From Escherichia coli (GTDB lineage Bacteria; Pseudomonadota; Gammaproteobacteria; Enterobacterales; Enterobacteriaceae), in NCBI RefSeq assembly GCF_001677475.2, contig NZ_CP015229.1: a stretch of DNA of 64,000 nt, one strand, 5' to 3'. A program made the translations under genes and the position numbers. This document shows positions 11,104 through 60,424 of the stretch, one piece after another. Each line of letters opens with the position of its first letter. The stretch's first letter is position 1. The notes below the pieces were generated by a model that searched no databases, had not been told where the DNA came from, and saw only the letters and a program-made list of their open reading frames with translations.

Positions 11104-12546
11104 TTAAGCGGGTAATGTGATAATAAACCTTGTCCCCCGCGCATCTGACGTTACTGCAACCGTGCCTTTATGCGCGACAACTATCGATTTCACTATCGCC
11201 AGACCAATGCCGCTACCTTCGCCTTTTCGCTGACGGGAGGGGTCAACGCGGTAGAAACGGTCAAACAATCGCGGTAAGTGCTCGGGCGCAATGGGCGTAC
11301 CGGGGTTTTCGACGGTAACTTGCACCTGGTGATCGACCGTCTGGCAGCGCACTACAATTGCCTCTCCGGGTGGCGTATAACGCAGGGCATTAGAAAGCAG
11401 GTTGCTTAACGCCCGACGCAGCATCAGCGGATCGCCCGCAACCTGACATTCGTCGCCAACAAACCGCAACTCCACGCCGCGATCTTCCGCTAACGCCTCG
11501 AAAAAATCGAACACTTTGCCGACTTCATCTGCCAGGTTGAGCATTTTCTTTTCGGGGATTAACTGGTTGTTATCGGCCTGGGCGAGAAACAGCATATCGC
11601 TGACCATTTTCGCCATTCGCGTCAGCTCTTCGAGATTTGAGTAGAGCACATCTTCCAGCTCCTTCTGGCTGCGCGACTGGCTGAGGGCGATTTCCGTTTG
11701 CGTTATGAGATTTGTAATCGGTGTACGAATTTCGTGAGCGATATCGGCTGAGAAATTGGACTGGCGGGTAAAGACATCCTCAATACGCTCGATCATATGG
11801 TTGAACGACAGTACCAGCTGTTCCAGCTCAATTGGCACGGTCTGCGGGTCGAGGCGTACGTCGAGATCTTTCGAGGTGATATTCTGGATTTGACGGCTGA
11901 CGCTGCGGATCGGCGCGTGACCTTTATGTACCGCCAACAGTACGATAAAGACGATCAGGATGCTGATGATCGATGCGGTCATAATAAGTTTATTCATCAA
12001 ATCATTTATGTAATGAAGATGAAAATCGATCGAAAGTGCGATGTAGAGCGTATAAATCGGTTTGCCGTCCACCAACGGGCCAACCGGCATGTTAATCATC
12101 CGCCAGTTGCTGTGTTCCATATGCCCGTGACCGTGGCCTGGCATCATAATCGTCGGGCCGGAAAGGAGATACACCTCGCCGCCCCGCGCGTCTTTATCGG
12201 GTATGGCGTCACGCGTAAACTCGCGGATATCCGGCGCACCGGGGGAGTGATACACCGTTTTGCCGTGGCTATCTGCCAGGGAAATCAACACGTTGGAATA
12301 ACCACTGACAATATCTTCCAGCGTCATTAAGCGTCGGGCTTGTGTCTCTTCGGGATGATTAAGAACGCGCTTGAGTGTGGCGCTAATCTCTTTTAAATCA
12401 TTAATATCCTGCTCGGCAAAATGCACTTTTACTGAGTGGATCATGATCCATGCAAAGGCGAAAAACGCCGCGATGGTGGCCAGGCTGATAAAAAAGGTCA
12501 GGCGGGTTGCCAGCGAAAACGGGCGCTGAAATGGCTTACTGACCAT
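11104..12546 (-). CDS. cusS: Copper/silver-sensing histidine kinase CusS
   Basis: Start trimmed to [10 protein letters not shown] (cat at 12544..12546); HAMP/HisKA/HATPase layout; overlaps cusR by 11 nt. Confidence 0.9.
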
Positions 12547-13219
12547 CCGGCACCTCAAGCATGTAACCCACGCCGCGCACGGTTTGAATCAGCTTCGGCT
12601 CAAAGTCGTTGTCGATTTTGCCGCGTAGCCGCTTCACCGCCACATCAATGGCGTTAGTGTCGCTGTCGAAATTCATGTCCCATACCTGCGAGGCGATAAG
12701 CGAGCGGGGCAGCACTTCGCCCTGATGGCGAAGGAAAAACTCCAGCAGAGTAAATTCTTTACTGGTCAGAGTGATGCGCGTGCCGCTGCGGGTGACTTTG
12801 CGGCTGACGAGATCGACCATCAGGTCGGCAACCTGAAACTGACTTTCGATAATTACCGCCGCCCCGCGCCGCATTAAAGTGCGCACCCGCGCCAGCAGTT
12901 CAGCAAAAGCGAACGGCTTCACCAGATAGTCATCCGCCCCCAACTCCAGCCCCTTGACGCGATGTTCAATGGTGCCAAGCGCGGTAAGCAACAGAATCGG
13001 CATCCCTTTATTGGCGGAACGTAACATGCGCACGATATCCCAGCCGTTCACGTCCGGCAGCATAATATCGAGGATTATCAGATCATAATCACCGGTCATC
13101 GCCAGATGGTAGCCATTCAACCCGTTGTCGGCCAAATCGACCACAAAACCGGCTTCGGTTAACCCTTTGGTCAAGTATTCTCCGGTTTTCTTTTCATCTT
13201 CGACAATCAACAGTTTCAT
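12536..13219 (-). CDS. cusR: OmpR-family response regulator CusR
   Basis: 227-aa [19 protein letters not shown]...; receiver plus winged-helix domains. Confidence 0.95.
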
Positions 13220-13284
13220 ATTTCCTCCGCATGTTGCCCGGGCAATTCTAGAGTAGCGGGATCAGATGGCAATCGCTTATTGGC

Positions 13285-13306
13285 AAAATGACAATTTTGT
13301 CATTTT
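13285..13306. promoter_or_regulatory. CusR-box palindrome in cusR-cusC divergent promoter region
   Basis: Perfect inverted repeat AAAATGACAA-TT-TTGTCATTTT between cusR start (13219) and cusC start (13376). Confidence 0.7.
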
Positions 13307-13375
13307 CCTGTCACCGGAAAATCAGAGCCTGGCGAGTAAAGTTGGCGGCATAAAATCACCAGAAATTATGAGCCT

Positions 13376-14755
13376 ATGTCTCCTTGTAAACTTCTGCCAT
13401 TTTGTGTGGCCCTTGCGCTAACCGGTTGTTCACTGGCACCGGATTATCAGCACCCGGCAATGCCCGTGCCGCAGCAGTTCTCACTCAACCAGAACGGCCT
13501 GGTTAACGCAGCAGATAACTACCAGAACGCGGGCTGGCGCACCTTTTTTGTTGATAATCAGGTGAAGACGCTGATTAGCGAGGCGCTGGTGAATAACCGG
13601 GATTTGCGCATGGCGACGCTGAAAGTGCAGGAAGCGCGGGCGCAATATCGTCTGACCGATGCCGACCGCTACCCACAGCTCAATGGCGAGGGCAGCGGCA
13701 GCTGGAGCGGCAATCTTAAAGGCGATTCAGCCACGACGCGGGAGTTCTCGACTGGCCTTAACGCCAGCTTTGATCTCGATTTTTTCGGTCGCTTAAAGAA
13801 CATGAGCGAAGCCGAGCGACAAAATTATTTAGCCACTGAGGAAGCTCAGCGCGCGGTGCATATTCTGCTGGTTTCTAATGTCGCGCAAAGCTATTTCAAT
13901 CAGCAGCTGGCGTATGCGCAATTGCAAATAGCCGAAGAAACGCTGCGTAATTATCAGCAGTCATATGCGTTTGTCGAAAAACAACTGTTGACCGGTAGCA
14001 GCAATGTTCTGGCGCTGGAACAGGCTCGCGGGGTGATTGAAAGTACCCGCAGCGACATCGCTAAACGTCAGGGGGAACTGGCGCAGGCGAATAATGCATT
14101 GCAACTGTTATTGGGAAGCTACGGCAAGCTGCCGCAAGCGCAGATAGTAAACAGCGACAGCCTGCAAAGCGTTAAATTACCGGCGGGCTTGTCGTCGCAA
14201 ATCTTATTGCAGCGCCCGGATATTATGGAAGCTGAACACGCGTTAATGGCGGCTAATGCCAACATTGGCGCTGCGCGTGCGGCATTTTTCCCGTCTATAA
14301 GCCTGACCAGCGGAATATCGACCGCCAGCAGCGATCTGTCGTCATTATTTAACGCCAGCAGCGGGATGTGGAATTTTATTCCCAAAATTGAGATCCCCAT
14401 TTTTAATGCCGGACGCAACCAGGCCAATCTGGATATCGCCGAAATTCGCCAGCAGCAGTCGGTGGTGAATTATGAACAGAAAATCCAGAATGCTTTTAAA
14501 GAAGTGGCAAATGCGCTGGCATTACGTCAAAGCCTGAACGATCAAATCAGCGCCCAGCAGCGTTATCTGGCGTCGCTGCAAATTACCCTGCAACGGGCGC
14601 GGGCATTATATCAGCACGGCGCAGTAAGTTATCTGGAAGTGCTGGATGCCGAACGTTCTTTATTTGCAACCCGACAAACTTTACTTGACCTGAATTATGC
14701 CCGTCAGGTTAACGAAATTTCTTTATATGCCGCACTTGGTGGCGGTTGGCAGTAG
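13376..14755 (+). CDS. cusC: Outer membrane factor of Cus efflux system (TolC-like lipoprotein)
   Basis: ATG at 13376; lipobox LALTGCS; 459-aa ORF. Confidence 0.95.
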   Translation: MSPCKLLPFCVALALTGCSLAPDYQHPAMPVPQQFSLNQNGLVNAADNYQNAGWRTFFVDNQVKTLISEALVNNRDLRMATLKVQEARAQYRLTDADRYPQLNGEGSGSWSGNLKGDSATTREFSTGLNASFDLDFFGRLKNMSEAERQNYLATEEAQRAVHILLVSNVAQSYFNQQLAYAQLQIAEETLRNYQQSYAFVEKQLLTGSSNVLALEQARGVIESTRSDIAKRQGELAQANNALQLLLGSYGKLPQAQIVNSDSLQSVKLPAGLSSQILLQRPDIMEAEHALMAANANIGAARAAFFPSISLTSGISTASSDLSSLFNASSGMWNFIPKIEIPIFNAGRNQANLDIAEIRQQQSVVNYEQKIQNAFKEVANALALRQSLNDQISAQQRYLASLQITLQRARALYQHGAVSYLEVLDAERSLFATRQTLLDLNYARQVNEISLYAALGGGWQ

Positions 14756-14781
14756 TAATTTTTAACTCCAGGAGAGAATAA

Positions 14782-15114
14782 ATGAAAAAAGCACTGCAAG
14801 TCGCAATGTTCAGTCTGTTTACCGTTATTGGCTTTAATGCCCAGGCTAACGAACATCATCATGAAACCATGAGCGAAGCACAACCACAGGTTATTAGCGC
14901 CACTGGCGTGGTAAAAGGTATTGATCTGGAAAGCAAAAAAATCACCATCCATCACGATCCGATTGCTGCCGTGAACTGGCCGGAGATGACCATGCGCTTT
15001 ACCATCACCCCGCAGACGAAGATGGGCGAAATAAAAACCGGCGACAAAGTGGCGTTTAATTTTGTCCAGCAGGGCAACCTTTCTTTATTACAGGATATTA
15101 AAGTCAGCCAGTAA
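14782..15114 (+). CDS. cusF: Periplasmic copper/silver chaperone CusF
   Basis: 110-aa ORF with signal peptide; RBS aggaga upstream. Confidence 0.95.
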   Translation: MKKALQVAMFSLFTVIGFNAQANEHHHETMSEAQPQVISATGVVKGIDLESKKITIHHDPIAAVNWPEMTMRFTITPQTKMGEIKTGDKVAFNFVQQGNLSLLQDIKVSQ

Positions 15115-15129
15115 CCCAGGTTTAATGAG

Positions 15130-16353
15130 ATGAAAAAAATCGCGCTTATTATCGGCAGCATGATCGCGGGCGGTATTATTTCTGCGGCAGGTTTTACCTG
15201 GTTTGCAAAGGCTGAACCGCTAGTGGAAAAAACGCCGACCGCAGAACGTAAAATCTTATTCTGGTACGACCCGATGTATCCCAATACGCGGTTCGATAAA
15301 CCAGGTAAATCGCCGTTTATGGATATGGATCTGGTGCCGAAATATGCCGATGAAGAGAGTTCTGCGTCTGGTGTACGCATTGACCCGACCCAGACACAGA
15401 ATCTGGGGGTGAAAACGGCTACCGTCACGCGCGGGCCGCTGACTTTTGCCCAGAGTTTCCCGGCGAATGTCAGTTACAACGAGTATAAGTATGCCATTGT
15501 GCAGGCTCGCGCTGCCGGGTTTATCGATAAGGTGTATCCGCTTACCGTGGGCGATAAAGTACAAAAGGGCACACCGCTTCTCGACCTGACCATTCCCGAC
15601 TGGGTGGAAGCGCAGAGTGAGTATTTACTGCTGCGCGAAACCGGCGGTACGGCGACCCAGACTGAAGGCATTCTTGAGCGACTGCGACTGGCGGGAATGC
15701 CGGAAGCTGATATTCGCCGCCTGATCGCCACGCAAAAAATCCAGACTCGCTTTACGCTCAAATCGCCCATTGATGGCGTGATCACCGCGTTTGATCTGCG
15801 CGCGGGAATGAATATCGCCAAAGATAACGTGGTCGCGAAAATTCAGGGTATGGACCCGGTGTGGGTCACTGCTGCGATCCCGGAGTCCATCGCCTGGCTG
15901 GTGAAAGATGCCTCGCAGTTTACGCTCACCGTTCCGGCACGACCGGATAAAACACTCACCATCCGCAAATGGACGCTGCTACCCGGCGTGGATGCCGCAA
16001 CCCGCACGCTGCAGCTGCGCCTGGAAGTCGACAACACCGACGAGGCGCTAAAGCCGGGAATGAACGCCTGGTTGCAACTCAACACCGCCAGCGAACCGAT
16101 GCTGCTCATTCCGTCACAAGCGCTGATTGATACCGGCAGCGAACAGCGGGTGATTACCGTTGATGCCGACGGGCGCTTTGTACCGAAACGTGTTGCCGTT
16201 TTCCAGGCATCGCAAGGCGTCACCGCGTTACGCTCTGGTCTGGCGGAAGGTGAAAAGGTGGTTTCCAGCGGCCTGTTCCTGATCGATTCCGAAGCCAATA
16301 TTTCTGGCGCACTGGAGCGAATGCGCTCTGAAAGTGCTACCCATGCGCATTGA
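15130..16353 (+). CDS. cusB: Membrane fusion protein CusB
   Basis: 407-aa ORF. Confidence 0.95.
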   Translation: MKKIALIIGSMIAGGIISAAGFTWFAKAEPLVEKTPTAERKILFWYDPMYPNTRFDKPGKSPFMDMDLVPKYADEESSASGVRIDPTQTQNLGVKTATVTRGPLTFAQSFPANVSYNEYKYAIVQARAAGFIDKVYPLTVGDKVQKGTPLLDLTIPDWVEAQSEYLLLRETGGTATQTEGILERLRLAGMPEADIRRLIATQKIQTRFTLKSPIDGVITAFDLRAGMNIAKDNVVAKIQGMDPVWVTAAIPESIAWLVKDASQFTLTVPARPDKTLTIRKWTLLPGVDAATRTLQLRLEVDNTDEALKPGMNAWLQLNTASEPMLLIPSQALIDTGSEQRVITVDADGRFVPKRVAVFQASQGVTALRSGLAEGEKVVSSGLFLIDSEANISGALERMRSESATHAH

Positions 16354-16364
16354 GGGAATAGCCA

Positions 16365-19300
16365 ATGATTGAATGGATTATTCGTCGCTCGGTGGCGAAC
16401 CGTTTTCTGGTGCTGATGGGCGCGTTGTTTCTGAGTATCTGGGGCACCTGGACCATCATTAACACGCCAGTGGATGCACTGCCGGATCTCTCTGATGTAC
16501 AGGTGATTATTAAAACCAGCTATCCCGGTCAGGCACCGCAAATCGTTGAAAATCAGGTGACTTATCCGCTAACCACCACCATGTTGTCGGTGCCTGGCGC
16601 GAAGACTGTGCGCGGTTTCTCGCAGTTTGGCGACTCTTATGTGTATGTCATTTTCGAAGATGGCACCGATCCGTACTGGGCGCGCTCGCGGGTGCTGGAG
16701 TACCTCAACCAGGTACAGGGTAAGCTGCCTGCGGGAGTCAGCGCCGAGCTGGGGCCAGATGCCACGGGTGTTGGCTGGATCTATGAATATGCACTGGTGG
16801 ATCGCAGCGGTAAGCACGATCTGGCCGATTTACGCTCATTGCAGGACTGGTTTCTCAAATATGAGCTAAAAACCATCCCTGACGTTGCGGAAGTGGCGTC
16901 GGTGGGCGGTGTGGTGAAAGAGTATCAGGTGGTTATCGATCCTCAGCGCCTGGCGCAGTATGGCATCAGTCTCGCCGAAGTAAAAAGCGCGCTGGATGCT
17001 TCAAACCAGGAAGCGGGCGGTTCGTCGATCGAACTGGCGGAAGCGGAATATATGGTGCGCGCCAGCGGCTATCTGCAAACGCTTGACGACTTTAATCACA
17101 TCGTTTTAAAAGCCAGTGAAAATGGCGTGCCCGTTTATCTGTGTGATGTTGCGAAGGTCCAGATTGGCCCGGAGATGCGCCGGGGCATTGCCGAACTAAA
17201 CGGCGAAGGCGAAGTGGCGGGCGGGGTGGTGATCCTGCGCTCCGGCAAAAACGCCCGAGAAGTGATCGCCGCCGTGAAGGACAAACTGGAAACGCTGAAA
17301 AGTAGTCTGCCGGAAGGCGTGGAGATAGTTACAACATACGATCGCAGCCAGCTCATTGACCGCGCCATCGACAACCTCAGCGGCAAGTTGCTGGAAGAGT
17401 TTATTGTGGTGGCGGTAGTCTGTGCGCTGTTTCTCTGGCATGTGCGCTCGGCGCTGGTGGCGATTATTTCGTTGCCGCTGGGGTTGTGTATTGCTTTTAT
17501 TGTCATGCACTTTCAGGGACTGAACGCCAATATTATGTCGCTGGGCGGTATTGCGATTGCCGTCGGGGCGATGGTCGATGCTGCTATCGTCATGATCGAG
17601 AATGCGCATAAACGGCTGGAAGAGTGGCAGCACCAGCATCCTGACGCCACGCTGGATAATAAAACGCGCTGGCAGGTGATTACCGATGCGTCTGTTGAAG
17701 TGGGTCCGGCGCTGTTTATCAGTCTGCTGATTATCACACTGTCGTTTATCCCGATCTTCACCCTGGAAGGGCAGGAAGGGCGTCTGTTTGGCCCGCTGGC
17801 GTTCACCAAAACGTATGCGATGGCGGGCGCGGCGCTGCTGGCGATCGTGGTGATCCCGATCCTGATGGGCTACTGGATCCGTGGCAAAATTCCGCCAGAA
17901 AGCAGTAACCCGCTCAATCGCTTTTTGATTCGTGCTTATCATCCGCTGTTGCTGAAAGTACTGCACTGGCCAAAAACCACGCTGCTGGTGGCAGCGCTTT
18001 CGGTGCTGACGGTTCTCTGGCCGCTCAATAAAGTTGGCGGGGAATTTTTACCGCAGATCAATGAAGGCGACTTGTTGTATATGCCATCGACGCTGCCGGG
18101 GATTTCCGCAGCAGAGGCGGCGAGTATGCTGCAAAAAACCGACAAGCTGATTATGAGCGTACCTGAAGTGGCGCGGGTATTTGGCAAAACCGGGAAAGCG
18201 GAAACCGCCACCGATTCTGCTCCGCTGGAGATGGTAGAAACGACCATCCAGCTTAAGCCACAAGATCAGTGGCGGCCAGGCATGACGATGGGCAAAATCA
18301 TCGAGGAACTGGATAACACCGTGCGGCTGCCGGGGCTGGCGAATCTGTGGGTGCCGCCAATTCGTAACCGTATCGATATGCTCTCGACTGGCATTAAAAG
18401 CCCCATCGGCATTAAAGTTTCCGGCACTGTGCTGGCGGATATCGACGCGATGGCGGAGCAAATTGAAGAAGTGGCACGAACGGTGCCAGGCGTGGCTTCT
18501 GCGCTTGCTGAGCGTCTGGAAGGTGGGCGCTATATCAACGTTGAGATTAACCGTGAAAAAGCCGCGCGTTACGGTATGACGGTGGCGGATGTGCAATTGT
18601 TTGTGACTTCTGCGGTGGGCGGGGCGATGGTTGGCGAAACGGTGGAAGGGATTGCCCGTTATCCGATTAATCTGCGTTATCCGCAAAGCTGGCGCGATAG
18701 TCCGCAGGCACTGCGCCAGTTACCAATTTTGACGCCGATGAAGCAGCAAATTACCCTGGCAGATGTGGCCGACGTTAAAGTCTCTACCGGACCGTCGATG
18801 CTGAAAACCGAGAATGCGCGCCCGACGAGCTGGATTTATATCGATGCCCGCGATCGTGACATGGTGTCGGTGGTTCACGATTTGCAAAAAGCGATAGCTG
18901 AAAAAGTGCAGTTAAAACCGGGCACCAGCGTGGCATTCTCCGGGCAGTTCGAGCTACTGGAGCGCGCCAACCATAAGCTGAAACTCATGGTGCCGATGAC
19001 GTTGATGATCATCTTCGTGCTGTTGTATTTGGCGTTCCGTCGGGTGGGCGAAGCGTTGCTGATTATCAGCAGCGTACCGTTTGCGTTGGTGGGCGGCATC
19101 TGGTTGCTGTGGTGGATGGGCTTTCATCTTTCCGTGGCGACGGGCACTGGCTTTATCGCCCTTGCCGGAGTCGCCGCCGAATTTGGCGTGGTGATGCTGA
19201 TGTATTTACGTCACGCCATAGAGGCCGAGCCGTCGTTGAATAATCCGCAAACATTCAGTGAGCAGAAGCTGGATGAGGCGTTGTATCACGGCGCGGTACT

Positions 19301-19508
19301 GCGCGTGCGTCCGAAAGCAATGACGGTGGCAGTGATTATTGCCGGTCTGCTGCCGATTCTGTGGGGTACGGGAGCAGGTTCAGAGGTGATGAGCCGGATT
19401 GCCGCGCCGATGATTGGCGGCATGATCACCGCGCCTTTGCTGTCGCTGTTTATTATCCCGGCGGCGTATAAGCTGATGTGGCTGCACCGACATCGGGTAC
19501 GGAAATAA
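16365..19508 (+). CDS. cusA: RND heavy-metal efflux pump CusA
   Basis: 1047-aa ORF, RND transporter. Confidence 0.95.
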
Positions 19509-21017: not shown

Positions 21018-21051
21018 CCGCTCTCATCCATTCGATGAGAGCGGTTTTTTT
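21018..21051 (+). terminator. Rho-independent terminator after pheP
   Basis: Stem ccgctctcatc / gatgagagcgg followed by ttttttt, immediately after pheP stop and abutting convergent ybdG. Confidence 0.6.
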
Positions 21052-34844: not shown

Positions 34845-34890
34845 AAACCCATAATTACAGAAAATAATTATGGGTTTGTTATTTATTTTA
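34845..34890 (+). terminator. Rho-independent terminator after entF
   Basis: Perfect 12-bp stem aaacccataatt / aattatgggttt with 9-nt loop, followed by T-rich tract. Confidence 0.6.
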
Positions 34891-60390: not shown

Positions 60391-60424
60391 AAAAAAGCCC
60401 GCCAGGTGGGCTTACCTGGCGGGC
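60391..60424 (-). terminator. Rho-independent terminator after citT
   Basis: Perfect 11-bp stem gcccgccaggt / acctggcgggc with 6-nt loop; on the minus strand it is followed by a U-tract (aaaaaa on + strand at 60391..60396). Confidence 0.65.

Follow-up and report, generated by a model that had tools for sequence, protein, structure and literature searches.

The CusR box between cusRS and cusCFBA of Escherichia coli and a third half-site that may extend it toward cusC

A 22-bp element at positions 13285-13306 of the 64,000-nucleotide stretch of Escherichia coli DNA analyzed here (the window) is almost certainly the CusR box, the operator of the copper- and silver-responsive regulator CusR between cusRS and cusCFBA. 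The element reads AAAATGACAATTTTGTCATTTT directly in the sequence. It is laid out as AAAATGACAA-TT-TTGTCATTTT, a 10-2-10 inverted repeat with the core TGACA-N4-TGTCA at 13289-13302. The box is already known, having been defined in 2005 and later confirmed by ChIP-chip and gSELEX, and is an ordinary feature. Its function in the window would carry over from K-12 through sequence identity. The literature on K-12, which has an identical sequence, establishes that periplasmic Cu(I)/Ag(I) activates the kinase CusS, and that CusS phosphorylates CusR. CusR then binds TGACA-N4-TGTCA, turning on both cusCFBA, which encodes an efflux pump, and cusRS, as autoregulation. HprR, a CusR paralogue, recognizes the same box. 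A third half-site, TGTCA at 13309-13313, appears to extend the operator toward cusC, 23 nt upstream of a TAAAGT hexamer that has no -35 partner. Right arm and third half-site form a tandem pair that corresponds to a documented PhoB site, through which phosphate starvation raises cusC expression.

The box sits in a 156-bp gap between two divergent open reading frames, 12536-13219 on the minus strand and 13376-14755 on the plus strand. The former encodes CusR, a response regulator of the OmpR/PhoB family, recognized by a full-length match to the equivalog model NF007346 (506.7 bits against a cutoff of 420) and identical to K-12 CusR in 226 of 227 residues. Next to it on the same strand lies cusS, the gene for the Cu(I)/Ag(I) sensor kinase, identified by an NCBIfam model and by K-12 annotation and assigned to 11104-12546; the open reading frame as listed runs to 12558, and 12546 was chosen as the probable start by reference to K-12 annotation and to the profile alignment. 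The regulated target, the cusCFBA efflux operon, occupies 13376-19508 on the plus strand according to NCBIfam models and RefSeq annotation. Its four genes, each identified by a curated NCBIfam model, are cusC (13376-14755), cusF (14782-15114), cusB (15130-16353) and cusA (16365-19508). The original prediction had placed the element in the divergent cusRS/cusCFBA promoter region, and the NCBIfam models, together with RefSeq annotation of matching genomes, bear this out. By megablast, the cusS-cusR-cusC stretch is matched in 5344 of 5426 complete E. coli genomes. Gene order in K-12 MG1655 is the same, nfrB-cusS-cusR on one side and cusC-cusF-cusB-cusA-pheP on the other. Over 201 bases around the box, the window and K-12 differ at a single position, 13307, directly 3' of the box, where the window has C and K-12 has T.

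The symmetry of the element is nearly, but not strictly, that of a palindrome. A repeat finder returns two arms of 10 nt, 13285-13294 and 13297-13306, that are 100% complementary and are separated by 2 nt (TT). The left arm, half-site 1, faces cusR and contains TGACA at 13289-13293, while the right arm, half-site 2, faces cusC and contains TGTCA at 13298-13302; neither arm, nor the box as a whole, is assigned a strand. When the 22-mer is compared with its own reverse complement, the two central bases differ (TT versus AA), leaving 20 of 22 positions symmetric. The original prediction spoke in its title of a perfect 22-bp palindrome. As a perfect 10-2-10 inverted repeat the description stands, and its hyphenated form, with two perfect 10-nt arms about a TT center, is accurate; a strict 22-bp palindrome it is not, because of the central TT.

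Symmetry of this extent is, by itself, only modestly improbable under chance. Perfect inverted repeats whose arms reach 10 nt or more, with spacers of 0-10 nt, average 0.5 per random window under a first-order Markov model, and 22 of 60 such windows contain one or more; the real window has four distinct ones. Agreement with the published operator is far more telling. PMC11195947, a 2024 paper in PLoS Genetics that cites Yamamoto and Ishihama (2005), gives AAAATGACAAnnTTGTCATTTT as the E. coli CusR palindrome, located between the divergent cusRS and cusC(F)BA transcription units. For this consensus we relied on the quotation in that paper. All 20 specified positions of the sequence so quoted agree with the element in the window, which is its sole match there even when 3 mismatches are allowed. 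Searching with AAAATGACAANNTTGTCATTTT at up to 3 mismatches likewise gives one match in the 64-kb window and none in 100 dinucleotide-preserving shuffles. An exact match to a pre-specified 20-base operator, found at the position where it is expected, excludes chance. The reading of the element as a CusR binding site thus survives comparison with the operator as quoted in PMC11195947: the sequence is the same, 20 of 20 consensus positions agree, and the published site lies in this same cusR/cusC spacer rather than elsewhere. Assignment of 13285-13306 as the CusR box draws on sequence, symmetry, published consensus, K-12 identity and conservation in E. coli.

Binding data from K-12 point to the same place. 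ChIP-chip under copper gives one CusR peak genome-wide, at the cusR/cusC spacer, which is consistent with the box occurring only there. PMC11195947 states that CusR prefers AAAATGACAAnnTTGTCATTTT, that other chromosomal sites could not be identified, and that the promoter of the plasmid gene pcoE, which is directly controlled by chromosomal CusR, carries TGACAAnnTTGTCAT. In gSELEX, unphosphorylated CusR likewise gives a single peak, in the cusR/cusC spacer; HprR peaks in this spacer too, and its peak there is its highest. The gSELEX study describes HprR and CusR as recognizing the same DNA sequence with different affinity. Further papers repeat the model in which phosphorylated CusR binds the box and activates both cusRS and cusCFBA. 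The Reg-Seq preprint reports expression from the cusC promoter only with copper. For the CusR of Pseudomonas, mutation of the palindrome abolishes activation of both divergent promoters (PMC11195947).

The box is essentially single in each genome and closely conserved. Of 5426 complete E. coli genomes, 5333 carry a 30-mer containing it, typically in a single place (median 1, maximum 2 per genome), which answers the scan for additional copies that had been suggested as a check; 8 of its places are on plasmids. The C allele at 13307 is the commoner one, with 3403 records carrying the exact 30-mer and 1832 being one base off. Among the E. coli spacer alleles sampled, even the most divergent retain all 22 bases of the box, while the flanking bases 13284 and 13307 vary. 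One plasmid match was examined and lies between pcoS and pcoE, upstream of pcoE, where it reads tgATGACAATTTTGTCAcct. Among plasmids, the 30-mer query also matched the silR/silC spacer of a Kosakonia plasmid (AAAATGACAATATTGTCATTAT) and many Acinetobacter plasmids with copper-resistance clusters. A 20-nt BLAST match on a Klebsiella oxytoca plasmid was set aside as chance, copper genes being absent nearby.

Additional loci were fetched through similarity to the CusR protein, without selection on the box, and were scanned for TGACA-N4-TGTCA or TTACA-N4-TGTAA, one mismatch being tolerated. Sites appear in the divergent promoter of an Acinetobacter johnsonii regulator, upstream of a regulator on an Erwinia plasmid, at silE, and between hprR and hiuH. 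The last of these, TTACAATTTTGTAA, was obtained from a plasmid copy and agrees with the published site. Plasmid homologues from Ralstonia, Pseudomonas oryzihabitans and Burkholderia have no box within the fetched stretch; in P. oryzihabitans and Burkholderia the regulator gene is inside an operon, so that its promoter falls outside the locus and the absence is uninformative, not a negative result. Among the matches listed from a separate scan of a species-genome collection, cus-like loci with the box occur in Lelliottia, Enterobacter, Providencia, Denitrificimonas, Collimonas and one MAG contig. TGACA-N4-TGTCA is kept, across taxa, beside heavy-metal two-component regulators or their targets, as expected of a copper box; the published consensus of copper-box regulators of the CopR/CusR type is an inverted repeat of exactly this form.

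Alignment of related sites brings out a further half-site on the cusC side. The sequence CTGTCAC at 13308-13314 (plus strand, facing cusC) contains TGTCA at 13309-13313, 6 nt after the TGTCA of the right arm, and is a direct repeat of that arm in an 11-bp register. When 18 related sites are aligned on the inverted repeat and oriented toward the regulated structural gene, a half-site stands at this N6 position in 17 of them; the sites are partly paralogous (cus, sil, pco), and so the 18 do not count as independent. Its consensus across sites is [T/A/C]GTCA, with TGTAA at hiuH. The cusR side of the box in the window has no such half-site. In the aligned E. coli alleles the third half-site is invariant. 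A hexamer of the form TAnnnT lies exactly 23 nt past the third half-site in 14 of the 18 sites, reading TATAAT at pcoE and silE and TAAAGT at cusC and silC; at hiuH the hexamer is one base closer. Fewer sites share the outer A/T flanks of the box than share the third half-site and the 23-nt spacing to the -10.

The scan of the species-genome collection mentioned above used AATGACAANNTTGTCATT as its query and provides a contrast for this spacing. It yielded at least 120 loci, an arbitrary subset, used here solely as a case/control set. Most of these loci are irrelevant, representing a Collinsella-specific palindrome and, judging by context, apparently conserved coding sequence. Among the matches listed, all 6 cus-linked loci have NGTCA at N6, as against 1 of 99 distinct unrelated ones, and other offsets are shared by at most 2 of the 6 cus-linked loci.

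These comparisons suggest that the functional operator is longer than 22 bp and that the third half-site probably belongs to it. Its conservation could be owed to PhoB, to CusR, or to both. The type of third half-site tracks that of the inverted repeat, TGTAA accompanying TTACA/TGTAA at hiuH and TGTCA accompanying TGACA/TGTCA. The half-site is also present at plasmid, Acinetobacter and betaproteobacterial loci. Taken together, these points suggest that the cognate regulator may read the third half-site besides PhoB.

Between the third half-site and the cusC -10, at 13320-13326, a block AA(A/T)CAGA is conserved. It could be a further promoter element, hitherto undescribed.

An imperfect inverted repeat at 13302-13322 (ATTTTCCTGT/ACCGGAAAAT) was considered as a second operator and rejected, as it shows no conservation in sil or other loci. 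Of its 10 positions, 9 pair here; inspection of the K-12 allele, which has T at 13307, gives 8.

Promoters can be placed tentatively on both sides of the box. On the cusC side, hexamer geometry across related sites points to TAAAGT at 13337-13342 (plus strand) as the probable -10, which would put the transcription start near 13349. No recognizable -35 is present on this side, and a simple promoter scan gave no sigma-70 promoter; this is as expected for an activator-dependent promoter, yet is no proof of one. On the cusR side a consensus scan predicts a promoter on the minus strand at 13245-13272, with -35 TTGCCA at 13272-13267, a 16-nt spacer and -10 TAGAAT at 13250-13245, matching the consensus at 10 of 12 positions. 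The sil and Lelliottia spacers keep this TAGAAT at an unchanged distance, and Enterobacter has one base changed (CTAGAAT). The center of the box would thus be near -57.5 of the predicted cusR promoter, whose start would fall near 13238, and near -53.5 of the putative cusC start, and the tandem pair of half-sites 2 and 3 would be centered near -43.5 of the latter. Such a position would be class-II-like, typical of activators of the OmpR/PhoB type. A mapped cusC start or footprint coordinates were not found in the literature.

Right arm and third half-site together make a sequence that a different regulator is reported to use. TTGTCAT-TTTC-CTGTCAC at 13297-13314 is a 7-4-7 direct repeat with an 11-bp period, the repeat form of a Pho box, in which two repeats of roughly 7 bp with a TGTCA core flank a 4-bp A/T-rich spacer. 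The Pho box consensus is CTGTCATA(A/T)A(T/A)CTGTCA(C/T), and a classical Pho box replaces the -35, about 10 bp upstream of the -10. Here the second repeat ends 22-23 nt before the putative cusC -10, and because the distance is about 23 nt rather than about 10 nt we do not class the tandem pair as a classical Pho box. It nevertheless resembles one in its right arm plus third half-site, TTGTCATTTTCCTGTCAC, in the 7-4-7 direct repeat, and in being a reported in vivo PhoB site; an example of the box proper, at pstS, is CTGTCATAAAACTGTCAT (PMC3465305). The cus tandem site is unlike a Pho box in overlapping the inverted repeat of another regulator and in serving genes that are not phosphate-metabolism genes. 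PhoB ChIP-seq (PMC10294691, Table 1) lists a site at K-12 position 595521, in cusR/cusC, with the sequence TGTCATTTTTCTGTCACC. This sequence is the right arm plus third half-site and corresponds to the Pho-box-like tandem site TGTCATTTTCCTGTCACC at 13298-13315 on the plus strand of the window, which has C at 13307. The same study reports cusC expression of 208 in wild type and 50 in a phoB deletion, calls cusC a novel member of the pho regulon, and notes that the PhoB site is conserved (PMC10294691). PhoB was also located at cusR/cusC and at yedW/yedX by ChIP-chip and EMSA (PMC3465305). Three related response regulators, CusR, HprR and PhoB, would thus converge on this one site.

Likenesses and differences among related operators place the window element closest to K-12. 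With the K-12 CusR box, as PMC11195947 quotes it (AAAATGACAAnnTTGTCATTTT), the element shares all 20 positions, the intergenic location, the regulator (226 of 227 residues) and the spacer save one base; nothing substantive differs, the base 3' of the box being T in K-12 and C here. The box of HprR (YedW) at hprR/hiuH, CATTACAAAATTGTAATG, has the same 5-4-5 layout, divergent-promoter position and N6 third half-site, but it is built of TTACA/TGTAA half-sites rather than TGACA/TGTCA, and its signal is H2O2/HOCl rather than copper. The boxes of pcoE (TGACAAnnTTGTCAT), silR/silC and silE share the TGACAA-NN-TTGTCA core, the N6 third half-site and the 23 nt to the -10. Their outer A/T flanks are unlike those of the cus box, as seen in tgATGACAATTTTGTCAcct at pcoE and ...TTGTCATTAT at silC, and the -10 of pcoE and silE is the consensus TATAAT, whereas that of cusC is TAAAGT.

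The nearest precedent for a third half-site is AgrR of Cupriavidus metallidurans. Its operator was established by footprinting and mutagenesis as a 6-4-6 inverted repeat, ATKACANNNNTGTMAT, with an in-phase direct repeat beside it that is needed for full activation (PMC7380067). [quoted passage not shown] The AgrR box is like the cus box in combining the inverted repeat of a CusR-like OmpR-family regulator with an in-phase direct repeat. It differs in that its direct repeat is imperfect and present at some operators only, whereas the third half-site described here occurs at nearly every site with fixed spacing. With this precedent and the mapped PhoB site, the extension to three half-sites is largely known too, although we found no statement of a three-half-site architecture for E. 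coli CusR in the literature.

We tentatively propose, as a serious possibility rather than a probable one, that the operator of CusR, SilR, PcoR and HprR is no simple palindrome but a fixed module, consisting of an inverted repeat, N6, a direct-repeat half-site, 23 nt and a -10, without a -35. In such an arrangement, the promoter-proximal tandem pair would carry an activating head-to-tail dimer at about -43.5, and the role of the distal arm would be to bring in another protomer or to act at the divergent promoter. The tandem pair would also explain cross-activation of cusC by PhoB. CusR homodimers have been reported to give an unusually large FRET change, for which the authors thought higher-order oligomers might be the cause; this is compatible with more than two CusR protomers on DNA, and counts as weak evidence for them.

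A sharper form of this idea is that the tandem pair, and not the inverted repeat, drives cusC, being read head-to-tail by PhoB, by CusR or by both. The left arm would then act chiefly at the divergent cusR promoter or in additional cooperative binding, and the term 22-bp palindrome would mis-delimit the operator. We regard this as unlikely, although several observations speak for it. TTGTCAT-TTTC-CTGTCAC has the form of a Pho box, its K-12 version is a PhoB ChIP-seq site with PhoB-dependent cusC expression, and the third half-site and the 23-nt spacing are more widely kept than the outer A/T flanks. In DNA complexes whose structures are solved, PhoB, KdpE, PmrA and PhoP use direct repeats; for CusR, alone or with DNA, the PDB has no structure, only the PcoR DNA-binding domain (by NMR) and more distant members of the family. 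In AgrR, activation drops when the promoter-proximal direct repeat is mutated (PMC7380067). Against this, the left arm is as strictly kept as the right at every locus, the published CusR consensus, as quoted in PMC11195947, is an inverted repeat, and mutation of the inverted repeat nearly abolishes activation by AgrR and abolishes both divergent promoters in the case of Pseudomonas CusR. Reading the tandem pair in this way is a refinement of the CusR box and no replacement for it. Much less probable still is that the site is mainly an operator for HprR, in the H2O2 response, or for PhoB, in phosphate starvation, with CusR secondary. The highest gSELEX peak of HprR does lie in the cusR/cusC spacer, HprR recognizes the same sequence as CusR, and PhoB binds cusR/cusC in vivo and in vitro (PMC10294691, PMC3465305). 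The half-sites, however, are TGACA/TGTCA, the CusR type, whereas HprR's own box at hiuH has TTACA/TGTAA; the neighboring genes are those for copper sensing and efflux; phosphate limitation gives low cusC counts (208, and 50 once phoB is deleted; PMC10294691); and CusR is the regulator described as switching cusCFBA on in copper, with ChIP-chip placing it at the site under copper.

That the element is a chance palindrome, or a hairpin acting as terminator, attenuator or cruciform without a protein-binding role, has a negligible probability. About one random 64-kb window in three does contain a perfect 10-nt inverted repeat by chance, and the single strand can adopt a weak fold (-7.7 kcal/mol, z = -2.6). 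Against this stand the exact agreement with a pre-specified operator and the conservation of the box across genera while its flanks diverge. The AT-rich sequence, with a 2-nt center, cannot form the full hairpin, and the predicted fold pairs differently. Lying between divergent genes and upstream of both putative promoters, the box is probably not transcribed. No terminator-like site was found, and there is no Rfam match; with the weak fold and its different pairing, this led us to reject the hairpin and RNA readings, which are effectively refuted. The CusR box remains the reading that the evidence favors.

As the CusR box, the element is the cis-acting switch for the CusCFBA copper/silver efflux pump, a system relevant to metal tolerance, to silver resistance and to survival in copper-loaded phagosomes. 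Its correct recognition is useful for annotation and in itself adds nothing new. The modest addition made here is the comparative view, in which the 22 bp are part of a putative three-half-site module with fixed spacing to the -10, a portion of which is a PhoB site. If it holds, the module would offer a simple structural rationale for the reported cross-regulation among CusR, HprR and PhoB, and would serve as a sharper template for predicting targets of CusR-family regulators in other genomes.

The 22 bp of the CusR box (13285-13306), a 10-2-10 inverted repeat in the gap between divergent cusR and cusC, are invariant in E. coli among the strains compared, and the bases directly adjoining it on either side, 13284 and 13307, are polymorphic. 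Position 13284 is T in one strain; at 13307 the window has the majority allele, C, whereas K-12 has T. On the cusC side, the right arm together with the third half-site CTGTCAC (13308-13314) forms a direct repeat with a period of 11 bp, TTGTCAT-TTTC-CTGTCAC (13297-13315), oriented toward cusC. A published PhoB ChIP-seq site is the K-12 version of this same direct repeat, and polymorphic position 13307 falls within the spacer of the tandem PhoB site. The layout of an inverted repeat followed by six bases and a further half-site recurs at sil, pco and hprR/hiuH, and at cus-like loci of other genera.

A conserved AA(A/T)CAGA block at 13320-13326, downstream of the third half-site and upstream of the inferred cusC -10 element (TAAAGT, 13337-13342), appears at the equivalent position in the aligned spacers of the silC, silE and pcoE promoters and in those of Lelliottia, Enterobacter, Providencia and Denitrificimonas. 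The block is neither a -35 element nor an obvious half-site. An imperfect inverted repeat, ATTTTCCTGT / ACCGGAAAAT (13302-13322), overlaps both the right arm and the third half-site, and pairs at 9 of 10 positions in the window and 8 of 10 in K-12, where the allele was read by inspection. It is probably incidental, because conservation was not found in sil or other spacers.

Besides the box, the window contains three perfect inverted repeats whose arms are 10 nt or longer and whose spacers measure 5-9 nt. One of the two GC-rich examples, at 21018-21044, comes directly past the ORF at the pheP position; it and the other, at 60397-60424, may be terminators. The third, at 34847-34875, is AT-rich. 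Among the matches listed in the scan of species genomes for the box pattern, a palindrome, AATGACAACGTTGTCATT, is common to dozens of Collinsella genomes (L012, L016-L020, L022, L023 and at least about 40 more loci), where it is adjoined by a partial copy, TTAATGACAACGTAAGACA; one locus, L052, has two tandem copies. No CusR homolog occurs in the vicinity of these listed Collinsella matches, and their palindrome is presumably the operator of an unrelated regulator.

Gene order in the window is that of the K-12 sfm-nfrBA-cusSR-cusCFBA-pheP-ybdG-ent region. Long stretches of the window nevertheless reach only 97.3-98.8% identity to the best match among 5426 complete E. coli genomes. The highest value for cusC-cusF in this set is 98.4%, whereas the cus spacer shows 100% identity to some strains. 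The source of the window is probably a divergent Escherichia lineage absent from the complete E. coli assemblies. In K-12, cusC and cusF have a 125-bp insertion between them (4983-5107 of its locus, L001), which we take to resemble an ERIC/IRU-type intergenic repeat as a candidate identity. The window lacks it, with the junction at about 14757/14758, and its cusC-cusF gap is 26 bp vs. 157 bp in K-12; CusC is 459 residues long in the window and 457 in K-12. In E. coli O19:H7 strain 730V1, IS903B is inserted in the cus spacer (L134, 3110-4222) directly after the equivalent of window position 13328, which places it downstream of the third half-site and upstream of the -10 element; cusC is also split, by ISKpn26. 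The arrangement resembles a naturally occurring knock-out of the regulated promoter.
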